Assembly (NCBI GenBank): GCA_020850355.1
Contig: JADZEX010000091.1
Span: 35,755-99,754, forward strand
Length of the DNA stretch: 64,000 nt
From: Fimbriimonadaceae bacterium
GTDB lineage: Bacteria > Armatimonadota > UBA10988
Direction: 5' to 3'
Position 1 is the stretch's first letter. The number at the start of each line of letters is the position of its first letter. The position numbers and the translations under genes are program-made. Positions 8,436 to 64,000 of the stretch are shown piece after piece. Under the pieces are notes generated by a model. That model searched no databases. It was not told the origin of the DNA and worked only from the letters and a program-made list of their open reading frames with translations.

Positions 8436-8544
8436 CTGTTTCACGTGAAACAGCGCTGCACTGGCCCCGCCTGCCCACCTGCTGTTTCACGTGAAACAGC
8501 TCCCGACGGAGCGCGCCACCGACGGTCTGTTTCACGTGAAACAG
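8436..8544. repeat. array of 3 palindromic repeats CTGTTTCACGTGAAACAG at 8436, 8482, 8527
   Basis: Seen in sequence; periodicity 45-46 bp; positions confirmed by CFT-stop/FHVKQ artefact ORFs in the track. Confidence 0.9.
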
Positions 8545-19303: not shown

Positions 19304-19427
19304 CTGTTTCACGTGAAACTCGCGCCGGGCCCCGCCGCCCCCGCGCTGTTTCACGTGAAACAGACAGCCGCCGCGATGGCCCGCAGCGATCCAGCAGCCG
19401 GGCTGTCGCCCGTTTCACGTGAAACAG
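19304..19427. repeat. array of 3 palindromic repeats at 19304, 19346, 19412
   Basis: Seen in sequence between the NERD gene and the homocysteine methyltransferase gene. Confidence 0.9.
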
Positions 19428-30308: not shown

Positions 30309-30423
30309 GTGTTTCACGTGAAACACCGGCCCCGCCGGAGCCCAGCCGGCTGCGCCCGGGCCTCCGTTTCACGTGAAACAGCGTTTGGCGCCGGGCCGGT
30401 GCGAGCTGTTTCACGTGAAACAG
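30309..30423. repeat. array of 3 palindromic repeats at 30309, 30366, 30406 (first extends to 24-bp perfect palindrome CCGGTGTTTCACGTGAAACACCGG)
   Basis: Seen in sequence between two minus-strand genes. Confidence 0.9.
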
Positions 30424-43834: not shown

Positions 43835-43850
43835 GTTTCACGTGAAACAG
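43835..43850. repeat. single palindromic repeat GTTTCACGTGAAACAG between convergent genes
   Basis: Seen in sequence. Confidence 0.9.
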
Positions 43851-45827: not shown

Positions 45828-45944
45828 GTGTTTCACGTGAAACAGCGGTCCGCGTGGTCGGCCGGCTCGCGATGCTGCGGGGTGTTTCACGTGAAACAGT
45901 GCGCCCCACGCCGGCCGCGGTGCCGCGTGTTTCACGTGAAACAG
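45828..45944. repeat. array of 3 palindromic repeats GTGTTTCACGTGAAACAG at 45828, 45882, 45927
   Basis: Seen in sequence in divergent intergenic region. Confidence 0.9.
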
Positions 45945-48994: not shown

Positions 48995-49788
48995 GCTGGC
49001 CGCTGTGGGCCCAACTGCTGGCCATCGCCGCCTGCGGTGCGGCAGGACTGACCCTCACCCGGAGCCTCTTCGCGGCCGACGCGACCCGTGCCCAGCTCGG
49101 GTTGGAGGTCAGCCGCGGCGACTCCCTGCTGCACCGCACGCCCGCGGTCTGCAAGTTGCTCGGCCTGCTGGCCCTGGCGGTCAGCGCGGCGCTGTTGCCC
49201 CCGGCCGGGCTGAGCGTCCCTGGCGCGCTGGTGCTGCTGCTGCTGGTCGCGGCGCGGTTGCCGCTGCGGGCGGTGGCCGCGCGGGCCGCCGAACTGCTGC
49301 CCTTGGCGCTGATCGTCGCCGTCGGGGCTCTGCTGCGCGGCGACCCGGTCTTGTTCGTGGCGACGCTGGGCCGGGCGCTGATCACGGTCGCCGCGGTGGT
49401 CGCGCTGACTCTGAGCACGCCCCAGCCGGAGATTCTGCGGGCCGCCCGCCGGCTCGGGTTGCCGGCGCCGCTGGTCGAAATCATCGCGCTGCTGCTGCGC
49501 TACCTGGTGGTGGTGCTGGACGAGGCCAACCGGCTGGCGCTGGGGTTCAGCCTGCGGGCGGTCGGGCCGCGTGACTTGCGGCTCGCGCGACCGCTGGGAC
49601 GGGTGATCGGCGCCCTGGCGGTGCGCAGCCTCGAGCGCGGCGAGCGCGTGCATCAGGCGATGCTGGCGCGCGGCTACGACGGCACCTGGCCAGCGCTGCA
49701 GCGGGCGCCCGCACCGTCGGTCGCGGCGTGGCTGGGCTGCGGGCTGTTCCTGTCGCCGTTGCTGGCGGCGCTAAGCTACTGGCGATGA
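48991..49788 (+). CDS. cbiQ: ECF transporter transmembrane (T) component CbiQ
   Basis: Track ORF; GTG start overlaps cbiM stop (GTGA); polytopic, EcfT-like. Confidence 0.7.
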   Translation: MSWPLWAQLLAIAACGAAGLTLTRSLFAADATRAQLGLEVSRGDSLLHRTPAVCKLLGLLALAVSAALLPPAGLSVPGALVLLLLVAARLPLRAVAARAAELLPLALIVAVGALLRGDPVLFVATLGRALITVAAVVALTLSTPQPEILRAARRLGLPAPLVEIIALLLRYLVVVLDEANRLALGFSLRAVGPRDLRLARPLGRVIGALAVRSLERGERVHQAMLARGYDGTWPALQRAPAPSVAAWLGCGLFLSPLLAALSYWR

Positions 49789-50510
49789 GCGATCCGGCGC
49801 TGGCCTTCAGGCAACTCAGCTACGCCTACCCCGACGGCACCGCGGCGCTGCGGTCGGTCTCGTTCGCGCTGGCTCCCGGCGAGCGAGTCGGGCTGGTCGG
49901 GCCGAACGGCGCCGGCAAGTCAACTCTGCTGCTGCACGCCGTTGGGCTGCTCCCGGCCCGGGGCGCCGTGCTGGTCGGCGGTCTCGACCCGGACCGCGTC
50001 CCGCGGGAGGTGCGGCAGCAGGTCGGGCTGCTGTTCCAGAATCCCGACGACCAGTTGTTTCTGCCGACGGTCGCTGAGGATGTCGCCTTCGGGCCGCTCA
50101 ACCTCGGACTGTCCGCCGCAGACGTCGAGCAGCGCGTGGCCACCGCCCTGGCGCAGGTTGGGCTGACCGGCCTGGGCGCCAAGCTGCCGCAGCATCTCTC
50201 GTTGGGGCAGCGCCGCCGCGCGGCGTTGGCGACGGTCCTGGCGATGGGCTGCCAGACGCTGGTGCTGGATGAGCCGACCGCCAACCTGGACCCCGGCGGG
50301 CGACGGCAACTGCTGGCGCTGCTGACGCAGTTGCCCGGCGCGCTGCTGCTGGCGACCCACGACCTGGAAGCCGTGCTGCAGCTCTGCCCGCGGGTGGTCG
50401 TGCTGCGCGCTGGCGAGGTCGTGGCCGATGGCGAGACCGCCGCGCTCTTGGCTGATCCCGAGCTGATGCAGCGCTGCGAGCTGGAAGTGCCTTGGCCGCT
50501 GCGCCGTTGA
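49785..50510 (+). CDS. cbiO: ECF transporter ATP-binding component CbiO (ABC ATPase)
   Basis: ATG at 49785 overlapping cbiQ stop (ATGA); Walker A GPNGAGKST, signature LSLGQRRR, Walker B LVLDEPTANLD. Confidence 0.85.
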   Translation: MSDPALAFRQLSYAYPDGTAALRSVSFALAPGERVGLVGPNGAGKSTLLLHAVGLLPARGAVLVGGLDPDRVPREVRQQVGLLFQNPDDQLFLPTVAEDVAFGPLNLGLSAADVEQRVATALAQVGLTGLGAKLPQHLSLGQRRRAALATVLAMGCQTLVLDEPTANLDPGGRRQLLALLTQLPGALLLATHDLEAVLQLCPRVVVLRAGEVVADGETAALLADPELMQRCELEVPWPLRR

Positions 50511-51673: not shown

Positions 51674-51769
51674 TTCGGACAACCGCCTAAGTCGTCCGCA
51701 AGATGAGTGGTGAGCCGATCCATGCGGCTACCGGGAGCGCGCGCCTCCCGGATTGGGAGGTCTCCGGCG

Positions 51770-53962
51770 ATGCGTTCGGTCCGCGCCACAACCTGGGCAG
51801 TGCTGGCGGTGCTCGCGGCCGGAGTCCGGGTCCACGGCCAGGGCGCCAGTCGGCCGGTCTACTTCGTGCGCGACGTCGCGCCGATCTTCGACCGCGAGTC
51901 GTGCAGCTCGTCGCCCTGCCACGGCAAGTTCGGCGGCGGCCAGGGCCGGCTGCAGCTCTCCCTGATGACGCTCTCCCCGGAGGCCGACTTCGCTGGGCTG
52001 GAGCCGCTGATCGATCTCCAGAACCCCGCCAACAGCGTGCTGTTGCAGAAGCCCAGCGGCAAGTCGCCACACGCTGGTGGGCGGCGCTTCCGGGAGAATG
52101 CCAAGGAGTACCAGACGATTCTGCGCTGGATCCAGGAAGGCTGCCGCAACCCGACTCGCGAGCCGCTGCCGGTGCGGCTGCGGGTGACTCCGGAGCGCTT
52201 CAACTTCACGCCCGACAAGAACCAGGGCCGGATTCAGGTCACCGCCGAGTTCGCCGATGGGTCGGCCGAGGACGTCACGGACCGCACCCGGTTCATCAGC
52301 CCGGACGAGGAACAGGTCGAAGTGACTCCGGCGGGCTACGTCACGATGCAGCGCTGGGGCCTGACCAACGTCGTCTGCCGCTACGTTGGGCTGACCAAGG
52401 CGGTGTTCATCTCGCTGCCGCGCCCCAAGACCGCTGCCGACCCGGCCCCGCCGAAGGTGGCCGCGGGCAACCTGGTCGACGCGCTGGTCCACAAGAACCT
52501 CGAGTGGCTGAACATCAACCCGGCTCCGCGCTGCGACGACTACACCTTCCTGCGGCGGATCTACCTTGACCTGGTCGGGGCCCTGCCCGATCCGGCGACG
52601 ATTCGGGCGTTTGTGAAGGACCCCGATCCGAGCAAGCGGGCGAAGCTGGTGGACCAGTTGCTGGACGACCCGCGGTTCGTCGCGATGCGCACGCTGCGGC
52701 TCGGGGACATGCTGCGGATCAACCCGCGCAAGCTGGCCAATGGTCCGTTGCAGGCCCGCGCGGCGATGATCTTCGACGACTGGCTGCGCCGCAGCGTGCG
52801 CGACAACAAGCCGTTCAACAAGCTGACCCACGAGCTGGTCAACGCCCGCGGCTCGACGATGCTCAACGGCCCGGCCAACTTCTACCGCGTCGAGCGCTCG
52901 CCAGAGAACCGCGCCGAGACGATCGGGCAGGCTTTTCTGGGCGTGCGCCTGAGCTGCGCACGCTGCCATAACCATCCCTTCGACCGCTGGAACACCGACG
53001 ACTACTGGGAGTTCGCGGCGTTTCTGGCAAAGATCCGCGAGCGCGGCGCCGAGCTGTTTGACGACCGCGAGCTGTACGTCGACAACAAGGCCCAGCTTCG
53101 CAACCAGGCGGTGACCAGCAAGAAGAAGGGCCAGGTGGCGGTGCCGACCTTCCTCGGCGGACCGAGCCTGCCGCAGGAGCAGTTCCAGGGCGACTACCTG
53201 CAGGCGCTGGCCGACTGGATCACCAACGACGACAACCCGTACTACGGCAAGGCCACCGTGAACCGCGTCTGGTCGCACTTCCTGGGCCGCGGGGTGGTGA
53301 CGCCGGTCGACGACATTCGCGAGACCAGCGTCGCCGCGGTGCCGGCGTTGTTGACGCTGTTGGCGCAGGAGTTCCGCCGCACCGGCTACGACACGAAGCA
53401 GTTGATCCGCCTGATCGTGACCAGCGAGACCTACCAGCGGTCCAGCAGCAGCGACACCACCAACGAGCTGGACAACCGCTTCTTCAGCCACTTCCAGCCG
53501 AAGCAGATGCTGGCGCAAGTGTTGCTGGACGCCATCAACACGGCCTGCGGCACCTGGGACCAGTACGCCAGCTTCCCACGAGGGACCACCGCGGTGGAGC
53601 TGCCGCTGATGGTCAACAACGACTTCCTGGACCGCTTCGGACGCAGCAACCGGGAGTTTCTGGCGACGCTCGACCCGCACGCCGAGCCGACCATGCCGCA
53701 GACGCTGCATCTGATCAACTCCGGGTACATCAACGGCAAGATCACCTCGCGCGAGGGAACCGTGGCGACCCTCGAACCGCAGCTTCGGGACGACCGCGTG
53801 CTGGTCGAAGAGCTCTACCTGCGGACCCTCTGCCGCCCGCCGAGCGCTGGCGAGCTGGAGCAGGTCCTGGGATACCTTAAGAAGATCCCAAACCGCCGCG
53901 AGGCGTTCGAGGATCTCCTGTGGGCGCTGATCAGCTCGCGGGAGTTTGTGTTCATCAGTTAG
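51770..53962 (+). CDS. DUF1549/DUF1553 domain protein (Planctomycete PSD1-type), secreted
   Basis: ATG at 51770 after GGGAGG; signal peptide; motif SCARCHNHPFDRW typical of DUF1549; N-terminal Cys-rich segment. Confidence 0.7.
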   Translation: MRSVRATTWAVLAVLAAGVRVHGQGASRPVYFVRDVAPIFDRESCSSSPCHGKFGGGQGRLQLSLMTLSPEADFAGLEPLIDLQNPANSVLLQKPSGKSPHAGGRRFRENAKEYQTILRWIQEGCRNPTREPLPVRLRVTPERFNFTPDKNQGRIQVTAEFADGSAEDVTDRTRFISPDEEQVEVTPAGYVTMQRWGLTNVVCRYVGLTKAVFISLPRPKTAADPAPPKVAAGNLVDALVHKNLEWLNINPAPRCDDYTFLRRIYLDLVGALPDPATIRAFVKDPDPSKRAKLVDQLLDDPRFVAMRTLRLGDMLRINPRKLANGPLQARAAMIFDDWLRRSVRDNKPFNKLTHELVNARGSTMLNGPANFYRVERSPENRAETIGQAFLGVRLSCARCHNHPFDRWNTDDYWEFAAFLAKIRERGAELFDDRELYVDNKAQLRNQAVTSKKKGQVAVPTFLGGPSLPQEQFQGDYLQALADWITNDDNPYYGKATVNRVWSHFLGRGVVTPVDDIRETSVAAVPALLTLLAQEFRRTGYDTKQLIRLIVTSETYQRSSSSDTTNELDNRFFSHFQPKQMLAQVLLDAINTACGTWDQYASFPRGTTAVELPLMVNNDFLDRFGRSNREFLATLDPHAEPTMPQTLHLINSGYINGKITSREGTVATLEPQLRDDRVLVEELYLRTLCRPPSAGELEQVLGYLKKIPNRREAFEDLLWALISSREFVFIS

Positions 53963-53984
53963 GCCCGACCAAGGGAGCCCCACA

Positions 53985-55334
53985 ATGCCCATCGACGAGA
54001 CCGGGATCCATACCGACTACTGCGACGGCCACGCCCGGCGCGATGTGCTGAAGGCTGGCGTGCTGGGGATGTTCGGCCTCAGCCTGAGCGGCTTCCTGCA
54101 GGCCCAGGCGGCGCAGGCCCAGACCGCTGCGGCGGGCGAGGCCGCGGCTGCCACCGCGCCGCGCGGCAAAGCCGACGCCTGCATCTTGCTGTTCCTGGCC
54201 GGCGGCCCGTCGCACCTCGATAGCTGGGACCCCAAGCCGAGCGCGCCCGAGGAAGTGCGCGGCAGCTTCAAGACCGTCGCCACGAAGCTGCCGGGGGTGC
54301 AGTTTGGGGAGCACATGACGCGCTGCGCGCAGATCGCCGGGGACCTCACGGTGATCCGCTCGATGACCTCGAAGGAGGCCGACCACGAGCGCGGGACGCA
54401 CTACCTGATGACCGGCTATCCGCCGCTCCCCGGCTTCGGGGTGCCGGCGGTGGGCAGTGTCGTCTCGAAGCTGCTGCCGTCCCGCAGCGTGCTGCCGCCG
54501 TACATCGCGGTGCCCAGCCCGGTGCAGTACGGCGGCGCTGGCTTCCTGGGCGCCGCGCTGGACCCCTTCAGCCCTGGCGGCGACCCCAGCAATCCGGGCT
54601 TCCGGGTGCGCGACCTGGCGCCCGAAGGCGGGCTGAGCATCGAACGGGTGGACCGCCGACAGTCCTTGCGGCAGGCGGTTGATGCCAGCTTCGCGCGGCA
54701 CGAGAAGTCGTCCGACGCGGCGCGAGCGGTCGATGAGTTCTACAAGTCGGCCTACGGGCTGATTTCCTCCAGCGAGGCCCGTGCAGCCTTCGACGTCGCC
54801 AAAGAGCCAGACGCCATGAAGGACCTCTATGGGCGCAACAGCCTGGGGCAGTCGTGCCTCCTGGCGCGCCGCCTGGTGCAGGCGGGGGTGCGCTTCGTGA
54901 CGGTCCAGAACGGCGGCTGGGACACCCACAACAACGGCTTCCAGGCGCTTGCCGGCAAGCTGCCGCCGCTCGACCAGGCGGTCGCGGCGCTGGTCACCGA
55001 TCTGAAGCAGCAGGGCATGTTGGAGCGGACGATGGTGCTGGTGATGGGCGAGTTCGGGCGCACCCCGCGGGTCAACCCGCAGGGCGGCCGCGACCACTAC
55101 CCGCAGTGCTTCAGCGTGGTGGCGGCCGGCGGTGGCTGGCAGCGCGGGGCGGTGGTCGGCTCGTCCGACGCGACCGGCGCCAATGTTGCCGAGCGCGGCG
55201 TCAAGCCGGAGGACCTCACGGCGACCGTCTACACGCTGCTGGGAATCGATCCCGACAGCGACCTCCACTCGCCCGAGGGCATCCGAATCGTGCTCAGCCG
55301 CGGCGGCGTCGCCGTGCGGGAGGCGCTGGCGTGA
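53985..55334 (+). CDS. DUF1501 domain protein (sulfatase-like fold, Tat signal; PSD2-type)
   Basis: ATG at 53985 after AGGGAG; twin-arginine-like RRDVLKAGVLG; DUF1501-like motifs (DSWDPK, TVQNGGWDTH). Confidence 0.75.
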   Translation: MPIDETGIHTDYCDGHARRDVLKAGVLGMFGLSLSGFLQAQAAQAQTAAAGEAAAATAPRGKADACILLFLAGGPSHLDSWDPKPSAPEEVRGSFKTVATKLPGVQFGEHMTRCAQIAGDLTVIRSMTSKEADHERGTHYLMTGYPPLPGFGVPAVGSVVSKLLPSRSVLPPYIAVPSPVQYGGAGFLGAALDPFSPGGDPSNPGFRVRDLAPEGGLSIERVDRRQSLRQAVDASFARHEKSSDAARAVDEFYKSAYGLISSSEARAAFDVAKEPDAMKDLYGRNSLGQSCLLARRLVQAGVRFVTVQNGGWDTHNNGFQALAGKLPPLDQAVAALVTDLKQQGMLERTMVLVMGEFGRTPRVNPQGGRDHYPQCFSVVAAGGGWQRGAVVGSSDATGANVAERGVKPEDLTATVYTLLGIDPDSDLHSPEGIRIVLSRGGVAVREALA

Positions 55335-58219
55335 ACCGCTCACGGCGGAGCTGGCTGTGGCTCGTGCTGCTCTCGTCGGCGGCCCTGGCGCAGGGCCCGC
55401 CGCGGCTGCAGGCGGTCTTCCCGGCCGGCGGCCGGGCCGGCAGCACCGTCGACGTGGTCCTGCGCGGGGGCCTCTCGGGTGCCTCGCAGATGTTCATCTA
55501 CGGCGAGGGCGTGAGCGGCGAGCTGCAACGGCGCGAAGGCGCCAGCGATGCCAACGGCCGGCGGCTGTTCAACCAGAAGTGCGCCACCTGCCACGAGTTG
55601 CGCTCGCCGGCCAACCGCCAGATGGCGCCGCCGCAGTGGGAGGCGACGGTCGACCGGATGATCAACCAGCGCGGCGCCGACATCAACGCCGCCGACCGCA
55701 AGTTGATCGTGGACTTCCTGCGCGCCGAGGCCGCGGCCGGCGTGGTGCTCGGCAAGGTGACCATCGCCGCCGATGCCAAACCGGGCCTGCGCGAGATTCG
55801 CGTGCTCACCGCGGCGGGTGTCTCGACAGCCTTCCCGTTCTACGTCTCGGGGCTCCCCGAGACCGTCGAGCAGGAGCCGAACGACACGCTCGAGCAGGCC
55901 CGCGAGCTGAGCCTGCCGGCGGTGGTCAACGGCTGCTGCGAGCGGCCGGGCGACCGCGACTACGTCCGCTTCAGCGCCAGGCGTGGCCAACGGCTGCTGC
56001 TGCGCGCGACGGCCTACCGCCTCAACCAGGACTCCCAGAGCTACTTCTCGGCCTGCCTCTACCTGTACAACGCCGCCAAGCAGGAGATCGCCGCCAACCT
56101 GGGTTTCGAGGACCTCGACCCGTTGATCGACTTCACCGTGCCCGACGACGGGGTGTACACCCTGGAGTGCCGCGACCTGCTGTACCGCGGCGGCGCCGCC
56201 AATGTCTACCGGCTGGAAGTCGGCGAGCTGGGCTACCGGCAGAGCATCTATCCGCTCGGCGGTCAACGCGGTGCGGCGCTGCAGGCGCTGGTGACCAGCG
56301 AGAACCAGCCCCACCGCGAGTGGCAGACCACCCTGGCGGCCGACCAGCCGCTCGGGCTGCAGGAGTTCGACACGCCGTTCGGCCTCTTTCGTTTCCACGT
56401 CAGCGCCTACCCCGACATCTTGGACAGCGGTGAGAGTAAGCCGCAGAACGTGCGGCTGCCGTGCGTGATCAACGGCTGGCTGGGCCGGCCGGGTGAGGCC
56501 GACCGGTACGTGCTGAGCGTGCCGGACAGCGAGCCGCAGGTGGTGCGACGCTGGATGGTGGTCGGGCCGTTCGACGGGCAGGACATCGGCGGCCTGGAGC
56601 GCGCGTTTGACCCCGAGCGCGAAATCCTCGGTGGCCGCTTCGACCCGGCGCGGCAGTTCAGCGCCAAGGGCGGGCAGGAGGGTTGGGAGGCCAAGGACGC
56701 CGACGCCACGACCGGCGTGGTCGGCCTGCCGGCGGGCACCAACGAGGTCTGGTACGGCCTCTACTCGTTCGAGTCCCGGCAAGAGGCCTACGGCCTGCTC
56801 TCGATTGGCAGCGACGATGGCTGCAAGGTCTGGCTGAACGGCAGCGTCGTCCACAGCTTCAAGGGCAACCGGCCGGCGCGGCTGGCGACCGACCTGGTGC
56901 CAGTGCGGTTCCGCCGCGGGCCGAACATCGTACTGCTGAAGGTCTTCAACGCCTCGGGGCCGGGTGGCCTGGGCCTGGCCTCGGGCGCGCAGAAGATCGA
57001 TGTCTTCGCCCGCCGGCTGGGCTCCCCGCTGAAGCCGGTGCTGAAGCTGGGCTTCGGCACGCGCTGGCTGTTCCAGTCGACCAACGACTACGACTTCCCG
57101 CAGCGACCGGGCGGCGATGTGCGTTGCGACTGGAGCTTTGCGCAGGGCGGCGAGTACGGGCTGCAGCTCGAGGACGCCGACGGCGCGGGTGGTGAGCGGT
57201 ACGCCTACCGCATCGAGATCGGGCCGGCGCAGCCGAGCGCCACGCTAAAGGTCTTTCCGGCCAACCCGAGTCTGCCCCCGGGCGGCGCGGTGCCGCTGGT
57301 GGTCGAACGCAGCAGCCTGAGCGGCTACGCGGGCGACCTGCGGCTGGTCTTCGAAGGTCTCCCGGCGGGCGTGACGGTGGACGACGCGGTGCTGCCGGCC
57401 GATGTCCCGTCGACCGTCGTGGTGCTCCGGGCGGCAGCGGCCGCCAAGCCCGCGGCGACGGCGCTGCGGGTGTACGGTGAGGTGCCCAGCCTGAGCGGAC
57501 CGCAGCGCTTCGAGGCGACGCCGCAGGACTTCTACCGGATTCAGAACAACGCCTTCCCGATCAGCCGGCGCGGCCTGGTGGCCGCCGTGACCGAGGAAGC
57601 GGCCCCCTACACCTTGACCGCCAGCCCGGCCAGTGTGCCGGTCCGACCGGGGCAGAAGGCCGAGCTGACCGTCACGGTGGACCGCCGGCCGGGGTTCAAC
57701 CAGGACATCAACCTGATCCTGATGGGCCTGCCGCCGAATGTCAGCGGCACCTCGACGGTGATCCGCGCCGACCGGCGCAGCGCCACGCTGGAGCTGAACT
57801 TCAGCGGCAACCTCCGCAACAGCGCCTTCGGGCAGTCGCGGGTGGCGGACGCCTATCGCGTGGTGGCGGTCGGACTGAACGGCGGCGACGGCCTCAGCGG
57901 CGGGACGATGTACTGCAGCCAGCCGATTGTCCTGGAGCCCTACGACCCGACCCGCGAGCCGCGCCAGGCCACCCCACCAGCGACCGCTGGTGGCGCCCGA
58001 CCAGCCCCGAATGCAGGCGAAGCGGCCGGCCGGATGCTGCTCGAGCGGCGCTGCGTGGGCTGCCACGCGCTGTACGATCCCGAGGAAACCAAGAAGTCGC
58101 TGGCCGACTGGACCGCCACGGTCGACCGCATGATCCAAAAGGGCGCCCGCGTCTCGAACGCGGAGCGGGACCAGATTCTGACCTACCTCCGGGCGGTGAC
58201 TGCCCGCCAGACACGCTGA
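55331..58219 (+). CDS. large secreted protein with N- and C-terminal c-type cytochrome domains (CxxCH x2) and internal pre-peptidase-C-terminal-like domains
   Basis: GTG start overlapping upstream stop (GTGA); haem-binding motifs CATCHE and CVGCHA; signal peptide WLWLVLLSSAALA. Confidence 0.7.
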   Translation: MNRSRRSWLWLVLLSSAALAQGPPRLQAVFPAGGRAGSTVDVVLRGGLSGASQMFIYGEGVSGELQRREGASDANGRRLFNQKCATCHELRSPANRQMAPPQWEATVDRMINQRGADINAADRKLIVDFLRAEAAAGVVLGKVTIAADAKPGLREIRVLTAAGVSTAFPFYVSGLPETVEQEPNDTLEQARELSLPAVVNGCCERPGDRDYVRFSARRGQRLLLRATAYRLNQDSQSYFSACLYLYNAAKQEIAANLGFEDLDPLIDFTVPDDGVYTLECRDLLYRGGAANVYRLEVGELGYRQSIYPLGGQRGAALQALVTSENQPHREWQTTLAADQPLGLQEFDTPFGLFRFHVSAYPDILDSGESKPQNVRLPCVINGWLGRPGEADRYVLSVPDSEPQVVRRWMVVGPFDGQDIGGLERAFDPEREILGGRFDPARQFSAKGGQEGWEAKDADATTGVVGLPAGTNEVWYGLYSFESRQEAYGLLSIGSDDGCKVWLNGSVVHSFKGNRPARLATDLVPVRFRRGPNIVLLKVFNASGPGGLGLASGAQKIDVFARRLGSPLKPVLKLGFGTRWLFQSTNDYDFPQRPGGDVRCDWSFAQGGEYGLQLEDADGAGGERYAYRIEIGPAQPSATLKVFPANPSLPPGGAVPLVVERSSLSGYAGDLRLVFEGLPAGVTVDDAVLPADVPSTVVVLRAAAAAKPAATALRVYGEVPSLSGPQRFEATPQDFYRIQNNAFPISRRGLVAAVTEEAAPYTLTASPASVPVRPGQKAELTVTVDRRPGFNQDINLILMGLPPNVSGTSTVIRADRRSATLELNFSGNLRNSAFGQSRVADAYRVVAVGLNGGDGLSGGTMYCSQPIVLEPYDPTREPRQATPPATAGGARPAPNAGEAAGRMLLERRCVGCHALYDPEETKKSLADWTATVDRMIQKGARVSNAERDQILTYLRAVTARQTR

Positions 58220-58232
58220 CCACCGCCGCCGG

Positions 58233-58368
58233 CTGTTTCACGTGAAACAGCACCAGACCCCGGCCGCCAAGGTGGCGCTGCCGCGGCGGCGGGGCCAATC
58301 CGGTGAACCCCGGCGCTCCGGGCGCCGTGTTTCACGTGAAACAGCGCGAGGTGTTTCACGTGAAACAG
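58233..58368. repeat. array of 3 palindromic repeats at 58233, 58327, 58351 (last two only 24 bp apart)
   Basis: Seen in sequence between convergent genes. Confidence 0.9.
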
Positions 58369-58400
58369 CGCCCCACTCCGGTCGCCGTCAGCGATCCGTG

Positions 58401-59066
58401 CTACGGCTTGTCGGTGCGCAGGATCGTGATCAGCGTCTGGTTCGCGACGCGGGCGATGCTGACCGTGAACTGCACCTTGGGATGTACCTTGATCAACGTC
58501 GCGGTCCGCCCGGCGGCGGTGGTGCGGCTGGAGTTGGCCAGCAGCGGCTGACCCAGGGCCTGCTCATAGAAGGCGTGGGCCTCGGCGACGCTGGCGCTGG
58601 TGCTGAGCTGGACGATGGTGGTGCGCCCGCTGGCGGTGGTGCTGACGGTGGCGAGGCCCTGCTTGGCGCGCGGGAACAGGCGCAGCCCGAGGCTGGCGTC
58701 GGTGACGGTGGTGCGGCCGGGCACCTGCGGCGCCGCTTTCCCCGGCCGGGTCGCGGCCGGCGGGGCCGCTGCGGCGGGCCGGGTCGTCGTCGCGTTGGCG
58801 GCGGGAGCTGGCCGGCCGGGCGGCGCGTCGCGGTCGGACGGCGGCGGCGCTGGCGCGGCTGAGGAGTTGGGCAAGGCGGTCTCGGCCGCTGCCGGCGGGG
58901 CCTCGGCGGCGCTGGTCGGGGGCGCCGCGGCCGCCGTGGGCGGAGTCGCCGGCGGAGCCGCCCCGGCAGGCCGCTCCGTGGTCTGCGTCGCATCGCGAGG
59001 CACGCAGGCGGTCAGCAGGAGCATGGTGCACCCGGCCGCCGACCACCACCGAGTGAGTCTAAGCAT
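58401..59066 (-). CDS. lipoprotein with Pro/Ala-rich linker and small C-terminal domain
   Basis: ATG at 59066; lipobox LLLTAC; long PA-rich low-complexity linker. Start could instead be at 59102. Confidence 0.45.
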   Translation of the reverse strand: MLRLTRWWSAAGCTMLLLTACVPRDATQTTERPAGAAPPATPPTAAAAPPTSAAEAPPAAAETALPNSSAAPAPPPSDRDAPPGRPAPAANATTTRPAAAAPPAATRPGKAAPQVPGRTTVTDASLGLRLFPRAKQGLATVSTTASGRTTIVQLSTSASVAEAHAFYEQALGQPLLANSSRTTAAGRTATLIKVHPKVQFTVSIARVANQTLITILRTDKP

Positions 59067-59098
59067 ACTCGGCAGCGTGCCACCGGGCGCGGCTGCCG

Positions 59099-59653
59099 TC
59101 AAGCTGGCGGCGACCGCAGGACCACCCGCGCGCGTCGCAGTGGCTGGCCCGTGGCCCGCTGCCAGTAGCCGGGCGTCAGCTCCGCGGCCACGCTTTCGGC
59201 GCTGCAGGCGGGGTCGCGGCGGCGTTCGACCACCTCGTGCCGGCGCGGGTCGTAGGGCTCGCCGAGGGAGGTAAAGGCCTCGACGTCCTGCTCGGCCAGG
59301 AGCTGGCGAAGCTGCTCGCGCGGCAGCTCCAGCGAGCTCAGCCGCGCCAGCAACTCGGTCGGGTCGCTGCTGGGCTGGGCCGCCTGCAGGCTGTCGAGGC
59401 GGTCGAGGACGTCGAGCAGGCCGCGGGCCAAGGTGGCGAAACGGCGTTCCGAGGTCTCCTCGATCCGCCGCACGACATCCAAGAAGGCCTGCGCCGAGGT
59501 GGCCAGGCGCGCGTCGAGGACGTCGTCGATCGCCGCGCGGGTGGCCTGGACGACGGCCGTCAGCTGCGCCAGTTCGGCGGCGGTCGCCTGGTGGTCGCGC
59601 CAGGTCGATTCACGCAGCCCAATCAGGGCGGCGGCCAGGTCGGCGGTGCTCAT
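59099..59653 (-). CDS. GrpE-like nucleotide exchange factor homologue
   Basis: Track ORF; C-terminal region GEPYDPRRHEVV...PGYWQRATGQPLRRARVVL resembles GrpE; helical N-terminal half. Confidence 0.45.
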   Translation of the reverse strand: MSTADLAAALIGLRESTWRDHQATAAELAQLTAVVQATRAAIDDVLDARLATSAQAFLDVVRRIEETSERRFATLARGLLDVLDRLDSLQAAQPSSDPTELLARLSSLELPREQLRQLLAEQDVEAFTSLGEPYDPRRHEVVERRRDPACSAESVAAELTPGYWQRATGQPLRRARVVLRSPPA

Positions 59654-60096
59654 GGGAGGTCCTCCCAGGGATCGATCAGGGCCAGGGCCAGGTGCGCCAG
59701 CAGCCAGGCCTCGAGGGCGTCGTCGGAGGGCAGGGGCGGCGCCGGCTCGGCGGTGATCTCGGCCGCGGTCAGCTCCTCGGCGGTCGGGACTGGCACGACG
59801 GCCAGCGGATCGGAGTCGGGCCAGGGCAGCAGCGTCGCCACGAGGTCAGCCTGCTCCGGCCAGGCCTGGTCTGGTTCGAGGACCAGCCAGTAGCTATCGG
59901 CTGCGGCTAGCGCCGCGGCATCCGGGTCGCGCAGCACCGCCAGGGCGTCGTTCAGAGCCTGCTGCCGGGCCTCGGCGAAGGGCCCTCGGCGGGCCGCCTT
60001 GTAGCACCGCGCAAACGCCGCCTCGACCTCGGCGAGGCTGGCCCGACGGGCCACGTTGAGGCGCGCCGCGGGGCTGTCGAGGGGTTCAGGGAGCAT
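59650..60096 (-). CDS. small hypothetical protein, degenerate J-domain-like N-terminus (no HPD)
   Basis: ATG at 60096 preceded by GGAGGTG; overlaps the upstream TPR gene by 11 nt and the downstream GrpE-like gene by 4 nt. Confidence 0.35.
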   Translation of the reverse strand: MLPEPLDSPAARLNVARRASLAEVEAAFARCYKAARRGPFAEARQQALNDALAVLRDPDAAALAAADSYWLVLEPDQAWPEQADLVATLLPWPDSDPLAVVPVPTAEELTAAEITAEPAPPLPSDDALEAWLLAHLALALIDPWEDLP

Positions 60097-63000
60097 CACC
60101 CACCTCCGGGGCGGCGAGCGCTGCCGCCCGTTCGCGCAAGCGGCGGGCGGCCTCCTGGCGATCCGCCGCCTGCGCCGCCAGGCGCGGGTCGAGGCTGACG
60201 GCCCGCCCGATGAGCTGCTGCAACCGCTCGAACGTCCCGACCATCTGCACTGCCTGGTGGGATCGCGCGGCGCCCGCCGGCGCGGCGGCGAGGGCCTGCA
60301 ACTCGGCCAGCCGGGTGCGGCCCAGCTCGTCGGCCTGGCTGAGGAGCGCAGGCGCGAGCCGCTCGGCGACTTCGCGGCGGAGCTGCCGCGCACTCGCCAC
60401 CAGCTCCGCCGGCAGCTCCAGCGCCAGCGCCTCGTCACAGCGGGCCAGCGCCTGGTCCAGCCGGGCGACGGCCTCGCCCTCGCGGGCCAGGTTGCCGAGG
60501 GAGGTGACCTGATGCAGCCAGGCCTGGGCGAGCGGCACCGGCTCCAGCGCGACCTTGGCAGCGTCGCGCGCGGCGGCGAAGAGGCCCAGCCAGTCGCCGG
60601 CGACACGCCGTTCGCGGCAGGCGTCCAGCAGGCGCTGCTGCAGGATCAGCCGCTGCTCCCGGACCGCCACGGCACGGTCGGGCTGGCGGAGCTCCAGGCC
60701 GGCCAGAAACCCGCCCGCGGCGGCGGCGCCGTGCGCCGTGGCCAGCACCGCGGCATGGTCCAGTTGCACGGCCAGGTCGTCGCCGGCCTGGCGCAGCAGC
60801 AGTTCGGACCGCTGCACCGCCTCCTCGCCGCGGCCGAGGTCGAGCAACGGCTGCAGGCTGGCGCGCAGCGCCTCGTGGTGGTCCGGCCGCAGCAGCAGCA
60901 GGGCCTCCAGATGAGCAACCTCGGGCGCCGGCTGGCCGAGCCGCCGGTAGAGCCGCGCCAGCCGATCGTGGGCGGCCGCGCGGACGGCCACCGGCTCGCC
61001 GGCCGACAGCGCCAGCTCCCGCGCCGCGGCGGCGGCCGCCAGGTCACCGCTGCGCTCCGCCACGATGGCGCGGTTGTGCCAGACGGCCGGTGAGGCGGGC
61101 AGGGCCTCCAAGGTCGCGGCGGCGGCGGCCCCGTCGCCGGCCGCCAACTGGGCAGCGGCCCGCAGGTTGCTGGCGGCAGCGCTCTGGTGTGCGGCGAGCG
61201 CGGCCGCGGCCGCGGCGACCTGGCCCTCGCGCAAGTGCGCGCCGGCAGCGGCCTGCGCCAGCGGTTCGAGCGCCGTCGGCAGGGCGGTCAGCGGGCCGCT
61301 CAAGACGGCCTCGACGGCCGCCAGCGCCGGCTCGTGGGGACCTCCCCGCAGGGGGCCGGCTGCCAGGGCAAAGCGGCTGGCGTCGCCCTGGCGGGCCGCC
61401 AGGCCGGCCCAAGCGAGCTGCAAGGCGGCGTGCTCACGGCAGCGTCGCAGCGCCTGCGGCACGGCCACCGCGGCCGTGTGCGGACGCGCGGGCAGCAGCG
61501 CCAGGACGGCCGCCGGGTTCAGCCGTAGGGCCTCTGGCAGCGCGGCCCAGGCCGCCGGGTCGTCGCCGGGCAGGCTCCAGAACCGCACCCAGGCTGCCGC
61601 CTCGGCGTACCGCGCCGTGACCTCCAGCGCGCCGACGGGCTCGCCACGCCGGCACCGCTGGCAGGCGGCCGTCAGCGCCAGCAGGCCGCGCAGGTCGTCC
61701 GCCAGGGCGGTGTCTAGCGCTGGCGCCAGGGCCTCGAGCAGCGTGCTGGCCGCCGGGTCGTCGGTGTCGAGGGCGGCCGCCACCCGGCGCAGCTCGAGCC
61801 GCCGCCGCTGGTCGCGCGTGAGCTGCGGATGCCACGGCCGGAGCTCCTCCGGCGGCGCCGTGCGGACCGCCAGCTCCAGCCAGGCTGCCCGCCAGCCGGG
61901 CACGTCGGCCGGGCTTGGGGAGTCGCTCGCCAGCAGCCGCCACGGCGTGGCGCTCTGCGCCAGCCGGTGGGCCGCGGGCAGCGCGTCGGCGGTGGCCGCG
62001 GCCAGCGGCGCCAGCGCCAGGCGCTGGCGAGCGGGCGACAACAGGTGGTCGAGCCCCGCGGCCAGCGCTGGCGACGTCCCGCTGCCCTGCGACGACCGCC
62101 AGAGTGCCTGCAGCGCGGTCAAGGTCGGGTGATCCCCCGCTGGCGGCGGCTGGTCGCGCTGCCCGGCCTGCCAGGCGACCAAGAAGAGGCGGGCCGCGAC
62201 CATCGGGTCGGCCGGTTGGCGGGCCTGCAGTTCGCGCAGCAGCGGCAGAGCGCGCGGCCGGTCGTGCTGCCAGGCATGCCGGGCCAGACAAGCCAGTAGC
62301 GGTGCCTGCTGCTCCGCCGGGGCGAGCTGCCAGAGCCGGTCGTCGAGCCGGGGTGCCCACTCGCCGGCCAGCACAGCCGCCGCCAGCCGGGCATGGTTGG
62401 CGGCGTCGCCGGAGTCGAGCTGCAACACCCGCCAGGCCGCCTGTTCGGCGACCGCGCCGCCGCAGCCAAGCAGGTACCGTGGCCAGCGCGGTTCGTCGGG
62501 CTGGGCGGTGGAGGCGGCCGCGACGACCGCCGCTCCCGCTGGCGTCGGTGGCTGTGCGGCGACCCAGGTGGCGGCTCGCAGCAGGAGCTGCTCGCGCTGA
62601 AGTCCGAGCGGCCGCAGCTCGGCGTCGCTGGCGCGGCTGGCAGACCACCAGAGCGCGGCGGCCACCGCCCGGTCGACGGCGGCGTCGCCGCGCACCGTGG
62701 CGGCGGCGAGGAGTAGGGCGCCGCTGTTGTCGCCGGCCTTCCAGGCGGCCTGGTAGGCTGGCAGCGCGGCGGCGCGATAGCGGCCGGTGCGGGCGTCGCA
62801 GCGGGCCACGCCGAGCTGGCCGCGGGAGGTCGCGCCCAGCGCGGCGAAGACCTCCCGGCTGACTTCGTCGTGGCGGCCAAGCAACTCCAGCTCGGCGGCC
62901 AGGCGCTCGACCACCACCGGCTGGCGGTCCTGGCCTTCCTGGAACCGGCGCAGCAGCAGCCGGAAGCCGTCGGCCGAGAGCTCGGGAAGCTGCCGCCAGG

Positions 63001-63493
63001 CGGGCACCAGCAGCCGCCAGAGCTCGTCGCGCGGGGCGGTGAGGTAGGCGCGCTCGACCCACGGCACACCCCACGCGGGCACCTCGCCGCGGCGGCGCCA
63101 GAGTTCGAGCAGACCGTGCTGCGGGCGCGGATCGTCGGGGTCGGCGACCATCGCCTGCCGCCACCACTCCTCGGCTGCAGCGTCCTGGCCGTCTCGTCCC
63201 GCCAGTTCGGCGAGCGCGCAGAGCGAGCCGACATCGCCGGGTGCCAGCTCGTGGGCCTGCCGCAGCCAGGCCGCCGCTTCGCGACGCGGGTCGCTGCCGC
63301 GCCGAGCCGGCAGGGCCAGCACCAGCTCGGCCGCCAGGCGCAGCAGTCCGAGGTCGCGCGGGCTGGCGGCCAGCAGGCGCCGGCAGCAGGTGAGGGCCGT
63401 GGCCTGGTCACCGGCCGCCAGGGCAGCTTGCAGCCTGGCCGTGTCGGCGCCCGGCCCGCTCTGGCTGCCACCGCGCCACCACCTCCGACCCAT
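60086..63493 (-). CDS. large Ala/Leu-rich TPR-like repeat protein
   Basis: Track ORF, 1135 aa; helical-repeat-like composition; no catalytic motif recognised. Low complexity makes boundaries less certain. Confidence 0.5.
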   Translation of the reverse strand: MGRRWWRGGSQSGPGADTARLQAALAAGDQATALTCCRRLLAASPRDLGLLRLAAELVLALPARRGSDPRREAAAWLRQAHELAPGDVGSLCALAELAGRDGQDAAAEEWWRQAMVADPDDPRPQHGLLELWRRRGEVPAWGVPWVERAYLTAPRDELWRLLVPAWRQLPELSADGFRLLLRRFQEGQDRQPVVVERLAAELELLGRHDEVSREVFAALGATSRGQLGVARCDARTGRYRAAALPAYQAAWKAGDNSGALLLAAATVRGDAAVDRAVAAALWWSASRASDAELRPLGLQREQLLLRAATWVAAQPPTPAGAAVVAAASTAQPDEPRWPRYLLGCGGAVAEQAAWRVLQLDSGDAANHARLAAAVLAGEWAPRLDDRLWQLAPAEQQAPLLACLARHAWQHDRPRALPLLRELQARQPADPMVAARLFLVAWQAGQRDQPPPAGDHPTLTALQALWRSSQGSGTSPALAAGLDHLLSPARQRLALAPLAAATADALPAAHRLAQSATPWRLLASDSPSPADVPGWRAAWLELAVRTAPPEELRPWHPQLTRDQRRRLELRRVAAALDTDDPAASTLLEALAPALDTALADDLRGLLALTAACQRCRRGEPVGALEVTARYAEAAAWVRFWSLPGDDPAAWAALPEALRLNPAAVLALLPARPHTAAVAVPQALRRCREHAALQLAWAGLAARQGDASRFALAAGPLRGGPHEPALAAVEAVLSGPLTALPTALEPLAQAAAGAHLREGQVAAAAAALAAHQSAAASNLRAAAQLAAGDGAAAAATLEALPASPAVWHNRAIVAERSGDLAAAAAARELALSAGEPVAVRAAAHDRLARLYRRLGQPAPEVAHLEALLLLRPDHHEALRASLQPLLDLGRGEEAVQRSELLLRQAGDDLAVQLDHAAVLATAHGAAAAGGFLAGLELRQPDRAVAVREQRLILQQRLLDACRERRVAGDWLGLFAAARDAAKVALEPVPLAQAWLHQVTSLGNLAREGEAVARLDQALARCDEALALELPAELVASARQLRREVAERLAPALLSQADELGRTRLAELQALAAAPAGAARSHQAVQMVGTFERLQQLIGRAVSLDPRLAAQAADRQEAARRLRERAAALAAPEVGDAP

Positions 63494-63549
63494 CGGCTGC
63501 CCTTCCGTGGGGATCCTAGCCGGCGGCTGCGGCGCCTGTCAAACGGGCC

Positions 63550-64000
63550 TCAGGCGCCCGCCGCGGCGTGCCACATCGTGGCATCGGGCAGGCGCCCGCT
63601 GCTGAAGTCGAGGCCGCACGCCTCGCAGGCCGGCTGGGCAGGGTCGTCCAGCGGGCTGCCACAGTGGCCACAGCAGGGCTGCTCGCGGTCGGCCACCGTG
63701 GCGAGGGTGACCCGTCCCAGCAGGTAGGGCCGGAAGACCAGGCCACAGAAGCTGCAGGCGGTGGCTCCATCGTTGAGACCGGCGCCGCACCAGGGGCAGC
63801 TCTTGAGGGTGCTCCAGCGGGCGGCCAGGTTCGCGAGCTCGTCGTCGGTGAGCTGCTCGCTGAAGTCGGGCTCCGGCTCGGGCGGTGGCGGGGGAAACTG
63901 CAGCTCGCGCTGGCAGCCCAGGCAGACCGTCGCTTCCCAGGCCAGCGGCCGCCCGCAGGCGCCACAGGCGGTGCTGGTCTGGCCGGCCGCCTCGACCTGC
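63550..64000 (-). CDS. zinc-ribbon domain protein with multiple CxxC pairs, 5' end truncated by window end
   Basis: Own translation of a minus frame running off the window: ...TACGACGRPLAWEATVCLGCQ...CPWCGAGL...CSFCGLVF...CCGHCGSPL...CEACGLDF; stop at 63550..63552. Confidence 0.45.
   Translation of the reverse strand, partial: QVEAAGQTSTACGACGRPLAWEATVCLGCQRELQFPPPPPEPEPDFSEQLTDDELANLAARWSTLKSCPWCGAGLNDGATACSFCGLVFRPYLLGRVTLATVADREQPCCGHCGSPLDDPAQPACEACGLDFSSGRLPDATMWHAAAGA

Follow-up and report, generated by a model that had tools for sequence, protein, structure and literature searches.

A probable dedicated Hsp70 machine in Fimbriimonadaceae with a TPR-like giant, an HPD-less J-like protein, and a divergent GrpE as accessory subunits

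The mitochondrial PAM import motor is composed of mtHsp70, Mge1/GrpE, Pam18, the HPD-less J-like protein Pam16, and the zinc-ribbon escort Tim15/Hep1. The eukaryotic TPR co-chaperones Hop and CHIP bind the C-terminal EEVD of Hsp70. In E. coli, HscC is a specialised Hsp70 with the membrane-anchored J proteins DjlB and DjlC, and the Sel1/TPR-like YbeQ and YbeT are found in its locus. HscC is thought to work without GrpE (PMC8215388), and R167, Q378, and L391 of Hsp70 are described as contacts of the HPD (Mayer, 2021; PMC8215388). In the locus analyzed here, a giant protein, an HPD-less J-like protein, and a divergent GrpE are, with good confidence, accessory to an Hsp70 machine that is dedicated rather than housekeeping and that was split by rearrangement.

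Gene layout and coding evidence

The window, i.e., the whole stretch of DNA analyzed, comprises 64 kb of contig JADZEX010000091.1 from the Fimbriimonadaceae bacterium assembly GCA_020850355.1, where the module region spans positions 58401-63493. Four minus-strand ORFs (giant, J-like, GrpE-like, and lipoprotein-like) were present where an earlier, sequence-only reading had placed them. The features of the locus are as follows.

60086-63493, minus: giant TPR-like protein of 1135 aa, putatively all-alpha, encoded by the first operon gene
59650-60096, minus: small J-like protein of 148 aa, same sequence as MCC7495599.1 in NCBI
59896-60072, minus: N-terminal J-fold domain of the J-like protein, residues 9-67 (AF2, Foldseek, and family profile)
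59986-60003, minus: YKAARR motif at the HPD-loop position of the J domain, residues 32-37 (alignment and DNA reading)
59099-59653, minus: divergent GrpE-family protein, 184 aa, MCC7495598.1
58401-59066 from ATG (or 59102 from TTG), minus: lipoprotein-like ORF, 221 aa from ATG
63513-63542, minus: sigma-70-like promoter, TTGACA-18 nt-TAGGAT, 20 nt upstream of the giant ATG
58235-58366, no strand: three copies of the palindrome GTTTCACGTGAAAC, at the operon 3' boundary in a convergent intergenic region
63549-64000, running past the window edge, minus: 3' end of an upstream multi-zinc-ribbon gene (Pfam)

The TGA of the giant gene (60086-60088) and the ATG of the small J-like gene (60096) lie within an 11-nt overlap, and the J-like and grpE-like genes share a 4-nt ATGA overlap at 59650-59653. 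GGAGG-type ribosome-binding sites precede the starts of both the J-like and the grpE-like genes, and these two genes and that of the giant are translationally coupled. All four ORFs carried a high-GC coding signature (GC3 of 0.88-0.91 and GC2 of 0.52-0.69; GC3 of 0.91 for both the giant and the lipoprotein-like ORF), which was not seen in their alternative frames. The site at 63513-63542 was the sole promoter-like match in positions 57800-64000, where shuffled sequences gave an expectation of 0.0.

In the lipoprotein-like ORF, a lipobox (LLTAC) follows a hydrophobic segment, and MLRLTRWWSAAGCTMLLLTAC fits by eye a signal peptide followed by the pattern [LVI][ASTVI][GAS]C. No match to this ORF was found in Pfam, NCBIfam, or PADLOC. 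It is probably co-transcribed with the module, and it sits at the position where relatives encode hsp70. The four-gene operon proposed from the sequence was thus borne out for its ORFs, their strand, and the 11-nt and 4-nt overlaps, but not for the lipoprotein as a conserved member, since no homologue of its gene could be detected in the related loci.

The window ends (position 64000) just 507 bp upstream of the giant gene start. The upstream zinc-ribbon protein matched the Pfam families Zn_ribbon_3 (5e-8) and DZR (2.7e-7) and showed no similarity to the Zn-ribbon/TM proteins in the loci of relatives; it is not a conserved partner, and its association with the module is unproven. Genes around the operon in the window were unrelated metabolic and transport genes.

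Family assignments of the three cytoplasmic proteins

Profile searches for GrpE and DnaJ supported the proposed GrpE directly and the proposed J domain through a family profile. The GrpE-like protein matched the Pfam GrpE family (PF01025) with an E-value of 1.9e-14 and 54.1 bits, above the gathering cutoff of 25.8 and over positions 11-162 of the 165 in the model. It fell far below all 18 NCBIfam GrpE equivalog models, with a best score of 33.8 bits against cutoffs of 137-266. In a MAFFT alignment with E. coli GrpE, the DPxxH and GY......R.A.V.V motifs of the beta-domain were retained after a long helical region. The protein shared 46-50% identity with its relatives and lacked the last five to eight residues, a stretch whose counterpart in relatives overlaps the start of hsp70.

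The J-like protein of the window alone matched no Pfam family, including DnaJ (PF00226), at E<=1. Five of the seven members of its family matched Pfam DnaJ weakly (best E-value 0.0014), and the family profile (A2) matched J domains in the PDB, including 4j7z (2.7e-6) and E. coli DnaJ (1e-4). An AF2 model of the N-terminal domain (residues 9-67) consisted of four helices with a pLDDT of 84-94, and the top Foldseek matches of the model in the PDB were all J domains, with an rmsd of 1.3-1.8 A over 59 columns. The structure prediction therefore agreed with the J fold that had been proposed by eye, as well as with the proposed lack of an HPD: in a HMMER alignment, YKAARR stood opposite the YHPD of T. 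thermophilus DnaJ2, and all six members of the family in Armatimonadota carried it without variation. HPD was absent between helices II and III throughout the Armatimonadota family, and likewise in the J-like partners of Planctomycetota and high-GC taxa. The protein is therefore referred to as J-like rather than as a bona fide JDP. Its C-terminal region ends in a conserved DPW motif.

The giant of the window fell just under the Pfam cutoffs for TPR_17 (22.5 against 24.4) and TPR_8. A five-member family profile (A3) matched the consensus TPR 8bu0 with an E-value of 7.6e-8 and the OGT TPR with 6e-4, in agreement with the earlier call, and the giant appears to be TPR-like over parts of its length.

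Synteny and the partner Hsp70

In every Armatimonadota relative (at least nine loci; L001/L010, L002-L007, L008/L009, L011, L013, L014, L100/L101, and L102), the gene order was giant, J-like, GrpE-like, and a divergent Hsp70, with 8 nt shared by the end of the grpE-like gene and the start of hsp70 in all loci found. The three cytoplasmic genes of the window were thus conserved in the same order, which far exceeds chance. Giant homologues of 1302-1394 aa held the same position, and the giant of the window was about 200-250 aa shorter. In several lineages the Armatimonadota operons adjoined nadD-like and LytR genes, and this stable chromosomal position suggests vertical inheritance.

Genes for Hsp70, DnaJ, or a canonical GrpE were not found within the 64-kb window. 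The earlier remark that no dnaK is nearby was hence correct for the window, but an orthologous Hsp70 lies about a dozen genes beyond its edge by accession numbering. The source MAG encoded a single orthologue (P0018, MCC7495613.1; 596 aa), which was 56-60% identical to those of relatives. It comes from the same contig of 178 kb, with an accession 14 numbers past the J-like MCC7495599.1; its place and strand beyond the window edge rest on accession numbering and the matching contig of 178,184 bp. One GrpE-like and one J-like protein of these families were found from this contig, and no more. The apparent absence of an Hsp70 can be explained by a local rearrangement together with the window boundary.

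These observations bear on the sequence-only proposal of a repurposed module in which the GrpE-like and degenerate J-like proteins would work with the TPR scaffold only, independently of any Hsp70. Such a module would suit a 64-kb window with no Hsp70 gene and a J-like protein with no HPD. However, hsp70 is translationally coupled to the grpE-like gene in every relative, an orthologue has been retained on the source contig, and the Hsp70 lineage is altered exactly at the HPD contacts (see below), making the proposal very improbable and largely refuted by synteny. The presence of Hsp70 downstream in all relatives and of its orthologue on the source contig instead argues that the trio belongs to a dedicated Hsp70 machine.

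The trio may alternatively be viewed as a decaying remnant left after operon breakage, as the operon is disrupted in this genome only, the giant is shorter, and the C-terminal tail of the GrpE-like protein is missing. This is extremely unlikely, given that all ORFs are intact with a strong coding GC3, the overlaps and ribosome-binding sites are preserved, a promoter-like site is present, and the YKAARR, DPW, and GrpE motifs are retained, while the orthologous Hsp70 has its full length and every invariant of its clade. The trio could in principle have drifted functionally since its split from hsp70.

By sequence and structural model, the partner is assigned to the Hsp70 superfamily, with a predicted catalytic NBD, SBD-beta, and helical lid. 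The AF2 model of P0018 was a complete NBD+SBD Hsp70 (pLDDT 89) and matched full-length DnaK in Foldseek at 1e-46. The residues D8, T11, K70, E171, D194, T199, and D201 of the catalytic site were conserved in the clade. Its members were equidistant from E. coli DnaK, HscA, and HscC (30-33% identity to each), fell far short of both the NCBIfam DnaK cutoff (301 bits against 648) and that of HscA (254 against 709), and formed a separate superclade apart from the E. coli references in an NJ tree. Additionally, the VLLLD-type hydrophobic linker was changed, and the short lid of the Hsp70 ended in FFDYLL.

These properties also bear on whether the trio simply supplies the main DnaK system of the phylum with its housekeeping GrpE and with a DnaJ-like co-chaperone, as the NCBI annotations ("nucleotide exchange factor GrpE" and "Hsp70 family protein") and the classical grpE-dnaK gene order would imply. 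This is highly unlikely, as the GrpE-like protein scored at most 34 bits against the equivalog cutoffs, the Hsp70 fell under the 648-bit DnaK cutoff at about 30% identity to DnaK and lacked both the VLLLD linker and R167, and the operon included neither an HPD-bearing J protein nor, when looked for, a CIRCE element. Moreover, derived Hsp70 paralogues have been reported not to occur without a bona fide DnaK (PMC13580251).

The positions R167, Q378, and L391 were lost in all 21 superclade Hsp70s examined, where they were replaced by N/T/A167, V/A378, and Y/F391, in contrast to the other Hsp70s sampled, of which 31 of 31 retained R/K167 and L/I391. Changes located exactly at the HPD-contact residues indicate co-evolution of the Hsp70 with its J-like partner.

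A dedicated Hsp70 machine would have originated from an ancestral operon of the giant, J-like, GrpE-like, and Hsp70 genes. A rearrangement with its breakpoint at the grpE/hsp70 junction would then have shifted hsp70 (MCC7495613.1) by about a dozen genes on the same contig and placed the unrelated lipoprotein gene 3' of the grpE-like gene. In the machine itself, a GrpE-like dimer would serve as the nucleotide-exchange factor for the partner Hsp70, a role supported indirectly by the adjacent, translationally coupled genes of the two proteins in all relatives. The J-like protein may dock at the NBD/linker site of the Hsp70 through a rewired interface, with YKAARR in place of HPD on one side and R167->N, Q378->V, L391->Y, and E206->R on the other, and such an interface would insulate the pair from the housekeeping DnaJ/DnaK. 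The J-like protein may stimulate hydrolysis in a variant way, or it may be a regulator without stimulating activity, as Pam16 is. A role as scaffold or client adaptor is proposed for the TPR giant.

The same Hsp70 lineage was found outside Armatimonadota. The Planctomycetota loci L015, L023, and L025 encoded HPD-less J-like, GrpE-like, Hsp70, Zn-ribbon/TM, and TPR proteins, and the split Planctomycetota loci L020, L024, and L026 encoded only the Hsp70 and a Zn-ribbon/TM protein. High-GC loci also carried the lineage, and in the sister loci L030 and L040 of this group, Zn-ribbon/helical, HPD-less J-like, and Hsp70 genes were linked to vWA and Ser/Thr kinase genes. This linkage would fit a machine that serves conflict, defence, or signalling as the thresholding or regulatory core of such a system, and so would the GAP1-N2 systems, in which HSP70 and GrpE are reported together with proteins fused to DnaJ or TPR (Kaur et al., 2020; PMC7159879). 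Such a purpose is compatible with the chaperone mechanism. However, the Armatimonadota operons were not flanked by genes for a GTPase, FNIII, vWA, a kinase, or an effector and keep the stable position described above, which suggests vertical inheritance, and the neighbors in the window were unrelated metabolic and transport genes. Likewise, none of the four window proteins matched PADLOC-DB, where the Hsp70s of relatives had only a marginal match (PDC-M61B, E-value 0.0015). A conflict or signalling purpose is accordingly regarded as unlikely.

A broader interpretation, put forward tentatively and with somewhat less than even confidence, is that these Hsp70s of Armatimonadota, Planctomycetota, and high-GC actinobacteria-like taxa constitute a fourth, unclassified bacterial lineage, where both sides of a J-domain switch that is supposed to be universal have been rewired to give an orthogonal machine insulated from DnaK/DnaJ. 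The J-like partners would have lost the HPD and the Hsp70s the R167/Q378/L391 contacts and the canonical linker, while an active-looking ATPase was kept together with private GrpE, TPR, and zinc-ribbon partners. If true, substrate binding would be coupled to ATP hydrolysis in an alternative or J-independent way.

Comparison with known systems

The locus resembles DnaK-DnaJ-GrpE in its Hsp70, which has an NBD, SBD, lid, and intact catalytic residues, in the GrpE-family gene directly upstream of hsp70 (in relatives), and in the J-fold partner. Unlike that system, its Hsp70 is only about 30% identical, with changes at R167, Q378, L391, and the VLLLD linker and a short FFDYLL-ended lid; the J-like partner lacks the HPD, G/F region, zinc-finger domain, and client-binding domains; the GrpE-like protein is far below equivalog cutoffs; and a giant TPR-like protein is obligatory in the operon.

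Like HscC, the partner is a specialised, non-heat-shock Hsp70 about 560-600 aa long. An NBD lobe-I deletion and an insertion in the SBD-beta loop L1,2 are common to both, and genes for TPR-like repeat proteins and, in many members, for a membrane-anchored partner are linked to that of the Hsp70. In contrast, HscC retains R167, an (I/V)LTD linker, and HPD-bearing J partners, and HscC-type sequences form a different clade in the NJ tree.

The combination of an Hsp70, a GrpE-type exchange factor, and an HPD-less J-like protein, to which many bacterial members add a small zinc-ribbon protein and a membrane anchor, recalls the PAM motor by analogy only: Pam16 forms a heterodimer with the HPD-bearing Pam18, whereas these operons encode no HPD-bearing J protein, and mtHsp70 retains the canonical J interface. 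The invariant extreme C-terminal motif of the Hsp70 (FFDYLL or NYAYLL), which co-occurs with TPR proteins, is reminiscent of Hop and CHIP but, unlike the acidic EEVD, is hydrophobic. It directly follows the last lid helix in the P0018 AF2 model, at moderate confidence, and any binding of the motif by the TPR giant is purely conjectural.

The GAP1-N2 systems likewise include an extra Hsp70 with its own GrpE and DnaJ- or TPR-containing proteins, and zinc ribbons, vWA domains, and kinases are shared with some related loci. The GAP1-N2 GTPase and FNIII-repeat protein were absent from the window and, according to the Pfam tables, from beside the operons in related Armatimonadota and Planctomycetota loci, and neither HPD-less J-like partners nor a loss of R167 was described for these systems (Kaur et al., 2020; PMC7159879).

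The operon and its surroundings in the window

Four genes on the minus strand were identified in the 3' part of the window, which has a GC content of ~71% and belongs to a 178,184-bp contig of a MAG labelled 'Fimbriimonadaceae bacterium' (Armatimonadota). These genes and the other features located in the window were as follows.

58401-59066, minus: lipoprotein-like gene (ORF call)
59099-59653, minus: GrpE-like protein, 184 aa (MCC7495598.1)
59650-60096, minus: small J-like protein, 148 aa, identical to MCC7495599.1 (locus tag IT204_24830)
60086-63493, minus: giant TPR-like protein, ORF of 1135 aa
63549-64000, minus, running off the window: zinc-ribbon gene, directly upstream of the giant
48041-50510: CbiMQO-type cobalt ECF transporter
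3904-4014, 8438-8542, 19306-19425, 30311-30421, 43835-43848, 45830-45942 and 58235-58366: palindrome clusters, intergenic

The coordinates and overlaps read earlier from the sequence alone were verified: the giant and the small gene overlap by 11 nt, and the small gene and the grpE-like gene by 4 nt (ATGA). Both downstream starts, those of the small and grpE-like genes, are preceded by a GGAGG-type ribosome-binding site, and all four ORFs carry a high-GC coding signature (GC3 of 0.88-0.91) that is absent from the competing frames. A sigma-70-like promoter (TTGACA, 18 nt, TAGGAT) was located 20 nt upstream of the giant's ATG, as the sole match in a search over 6.2 kb where 0.0 were expected. 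A search for a CIRCE heat-shock operator found none. At its 3' end the operon adjoins a convergent intergenic region with three copies of a perfect 14-bp palindrome (58235-58366). This palindrome, GTTTCACGTGAAAC, often in the form TGTTTCACGTGAAACA, occurs 19 times in the window where 0 are expected, nearly always in clusters of three with a spacing of ~25-95 bp, in intergenic regions of every orientation, and its flanking sequences show no conservation. The palindrome may represent a REP-like element, or else a site recognized by a DNA-binding protein of high abundance.

The zinc-ribbon protein encoded upstream of the giant contains at least four CxxC pairs and matched the Pfam families Zn_ribbon_3 (5e-8) and DZR (2.7e-7). 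Zinc ribbons are recurrent in the Hsp70 system described below, both in the Zn-ribbon/TPR/TM proteins encoded downstream of hsp70 in relatives and at the N-termini of the large proteins of a high-GC sister group, and this neighbor might therefore be functionally linked to the trio of giant, small and GrpE-like proteins. It shares no sequence similarity with the Zn-ribbon proteins of the other loci, and the promoter-like site separates its gene from the operon. Genes elsewhere in the window, at 40170-43796 and 51707-58219, include those for a BTAD-WD40 protein of 1208 aa, a PSCyt2/PSD1 protein (DUF1549/DUF1553), and a cytochrome-c-domain protein of ~940 aa. Although found here in an Armatimonadota MAG, all three belong to families characteristic of Planctomycetota.

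Domain identity and conserved gene order

Profile and structure searches bore out the three domain calls of the sequence-only reading. The GrpE-like protein matched Pfam GrpE with 54 bits (cutoff 25.8, E=1.9e-14) over almost the entire model, and its alignment with E. coli GrpE indicated that the C-terminal GrpE motifs are retained. Against the NCBIfam GrpE equivalogs it fell far under the cutoff in 18 of 18 cases (at most 34 bits, where at least 137 are needed), and it is therefore a divergent paralogue and not the housekeeping GrpE. The small protein, described as J-like and lacking HPD, had no Pfam match when searched alone. A profile of seven family members matched almost exclusively J-domains in the PDB, including the J-domains of E. 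coli DnaJ (E=1e-4) and T. thermophilus DnaJ2 (2.7e-6), and the alignment covers J-domain residues 7-63 in register. An AlphaFold2 model with five homologues in the input predicted a four-helix N-terminal domain (residues 9-67, pLDDT 84-94), for which Foldseek returned J-domains from the PDB, including the DnaJ J-domain of 5NRO at an rmsd of 1.8 A. The YHPD position is occupied by YKAARR, which is invariant in the family. For the giant, the family profile matched consensus TPR proteins (E=7.6e-8) and the TPR region of OGT (6e-4), and the window protein itself was narrowly under the Pfam TPR cutoffs. Neither the giant nor the small protein nor the lipoprotein had a match in NCBIfam or PADLOC. 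The J-like family of the Armatimonadota type is rare, with six cluster representatives in a scan of 1.84 billion representative proteins.

A decaying remnant is an unlikely explanation of the trio, given its intact ORFs, gene coupling, promoter, and conserved motifs; the invariance of YKAARR likewise argues for a conserved alternative loop and against decay.

Homologues of the GrpE-like protein were confined to a few Armatimonadota MAGs and contigs from metagenomes. In every one of these relatives the order is giant (1302-1394 aa), small protein (149-152 aa), GrpE-like protein (189-202 aa), and Hsp70 (587-621 aa), as supported by the loci L001/L010, L002-L007, L008/L009, L011, L013, L014, L100/L101, and L102, and the grpE and hsp70 genes of the Armatimonadota relatives overlap by 8 nt. 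Of the four genes, the giant, small, and GrpE-like genes are conserved in relatives and the lipoprotein gene is not. In two of these loci (L001 4956-5447 and L011 4318-4785), the first ~160 residues of the giant form a separate ORF, which overlaps the start of the main ORF and corresponds by homology to residues ~20-155 of the giant in the window. This could reflect a genuine gene split, programmed frameshifting, or misassembly.

No Hsp70 gene was found within the 64-kb window. A search with the Hsp70 of a relative identified an orthologue in the source MAG (MCC7495613.1, or P0018; 596 aa, 56-60% identical), which lies on a contig equal in length to the one carrying the trio genes. Numbering from the GrpE-like (598), J-like (599), and Hsp70 (613) accessions, the giant should end in 600 and the zinc-ribbon gene in 601, which would place about 11 coding genes between the zinc-ribbon gene and the Hsp70, toward the side that runs off the window at 64000. 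A single GrpE-like and a single J-like protein of the trio families were found on the source contig, and the window trio is therefore the only partner set for P0018. The window's GrpE-like protein ends without the last 5-8 residues, whose codons in relatives overlap the start of hsp70, and the lipoprotein gene occupies the place of hsp70; both are consistent with a rearrangement that broke the operon between grpE and hsp70.

The sequence-only reading had suggested that this may be a repurposed co-chaperone-like module working with the TPR scaffold, as no dnaK was nearby and the J-like protein lacks HPD. A repurposed module independent of Hsp70 is contradicted by the adjoining Hsp70 in relatives and by the orthologue kept in the same MAG, and the case carries the lesson that a partner gene 'missing' at a window edge should be sought in relatives before repurposing is concluded. 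With high probability, the trio instead provides the accessory proteins of a dedicated non-canonical Hsp70 machine, and a local displacement has separated the hsp70 gene from it.

The partner Hsp70 and its proposed interface with the J-like protein

The partner Hsp70 is 30-33% identical to each of E. coli DnaK, HscA, and HscC, and it scored 301 bits against the DnaK equivalog (cutoff 648). In an NJ tree of 52 Hsp70s it was placed apart from the DnaK, HscA, and HscC-type groups, in a superclade with Armatimonadota, Planctomycetota, and high-GC subclades. Membership in HscC was rejected on the basis of the tree placement, R167 (DnaK numbering), and the linker. The AF2 model of P0018 (pLDDT 89) matched full-length DnaK structures with E ~1e-46, indicating a complete Hsp70, and the catalytic residues are kept. 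On sequence grounds, a housekeeping role for the trio and its Hsp70 appears contradicted by the equivalog scores, the ~30% identity of the Hsp70, the missing HPD, and the lack of a CIRCE match.

In DnaK, R167 and Q378 contact D35 of the J-domain HPD motif, and the linker residue L391 contacts H33 (Mayer 2021, PMC8215388). These positions are N/T/A167, V/A378, and Y/F391 in all 21 superclade Hsp70s; R/K167 and L/I391 are retained in all 31 other Hsp70s sampled. Additionally, E206, the acidic partner of the basic J-domain helix II, is replaced by Arg in the Armatimonadota and Planctomycetota clades, and the VLLLD linker is replaced by DYQVC or AYSVK; the proteins have an invariant C-terminal end, FFDYLL or NYAYLL. 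All three subclades thus combine a partner lacking HPD with an Hsp70 lacking the HPD contacts. This pattern is suggestive of co-evolution and not proof of it, because the NJ tree and the correlation carry no phylogenetic correction. The C-terminal FFDYLL directly follows the last lid helix in the AF2 model (pLDDT ~69), and its role as a free TPR-binding tail is a conjecture that this model neither favors nor disfavors.

The GrpE-like protein would act as the exchange factor of the partner Hsp70, and the J-like protein would dock at a rewired interface, where it may either trigger hydrolysis differently or, by analogy with Pam16, regulate without stimulating. Such rewiring would insulate the pair from DnaK/DnaJ, with the TPR giant as a putative scaffold or client adaptor. 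HPD and its Hsp70 contact residues are regarded as universal and essential to J-protein/Hsp70 coupling in every system tested (PMC8215388). Both sides of this interface appear to have been replaced in the lineage, and the GrpE partner and an intact ATPase appear to have been kept. The loss of HPD in the partner along with R167, Q378, and L391 in the Hsp70 is proposed as an unusual and testable feature within Hsp70 chaperone systems, and the module was not found described in open-literature searches. The lineage would offer a ready-made natural experiment for Hsp70 allostery, would exemplify how cells insulate the housekeeping network and a specialised chaperone from each other, and would provide a candidate orthogonal chaperone pair for engineering.

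Wider distribution and comparison with known systems

A metagenome scan with the Hsp70 alignment provided an outgroup sample and was also the source of the Planctomycetota and high-GC sister loci. As the pattern used, LINEPTAA, is generic, the matches listed were mostly canonical DnaK and HscC-type loci, with no close Armatimonadota relatives among them. In a Gemmataceae genome (L015), an HPD-less J-like protein, 27% identical to that of the window and sharing its C-terminal DPW motif, precedes a GrpE-like protein (Pfam E=1.8e-5) and an Hsp70 47% identical to those of Armatimonadota. Further on are a zinc-ribbon/TPR/TM tail-anchored protein and a canonical TPR protein of 516 aa. This arrangement is repeated in the metagenome loci L023 and L025, with a TPR protein before the J-like gene in L023. 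Three further loci (L020, L024, and L026) contain only Hsp70 and a zinc-ribbon/TM protein, and split arrangements therefore exist outside the window's genome too.

The high-GC sister group (L030, L040, and L043) encodes a large zinc-ribbon/helical protein along with an HPD-less J-like protein and an Hsp70 whose C-terminal end is HAYLL, and is linked to vWA and protein-kinase genes. In L030 and L040, hsp70 is separated from the J-like gene by genes for proteins of ~160-210 aa, for which a GrpE identity was not supported. The vWA-domain and Ser/Thr protein-kinase genes adjoin the unit at L030 5913-9161 and L040 5725-6333, and recall the TerY-P/vWA-kinase-phosphatase triads of predicted conflict systems. 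In view of these vWA and kinase links and of the HSP70+GrpE themes described by Kaur et al. (2020; PMC7159879), the Hsp70 module may yet have a role in signalling or conflict, but the stable position of the Armatimonadota operons beside nadD-like and LytR genes and the lack of PADLOC matches argue against a mobile defence island.

Among known systems, SglK/GrpS of Myxococcus was rejected as the same system, since SglK is DnaK-like, of the PRK00290 type, and complements a dnaK mutant of E. coli (PMC8265645). The E. coli K-12 hscC locus (L016, 675570-683393) encodes two Sel1/TPR-like repeat proteins, YbeQ and YbeT, as well as two DUF1266 proteins next to the J proteins DjlB and DjlC. Given YbeQ and YbeT, a link between specialised bacterial Hsp70s and TPR-like proteins may be a general theme.
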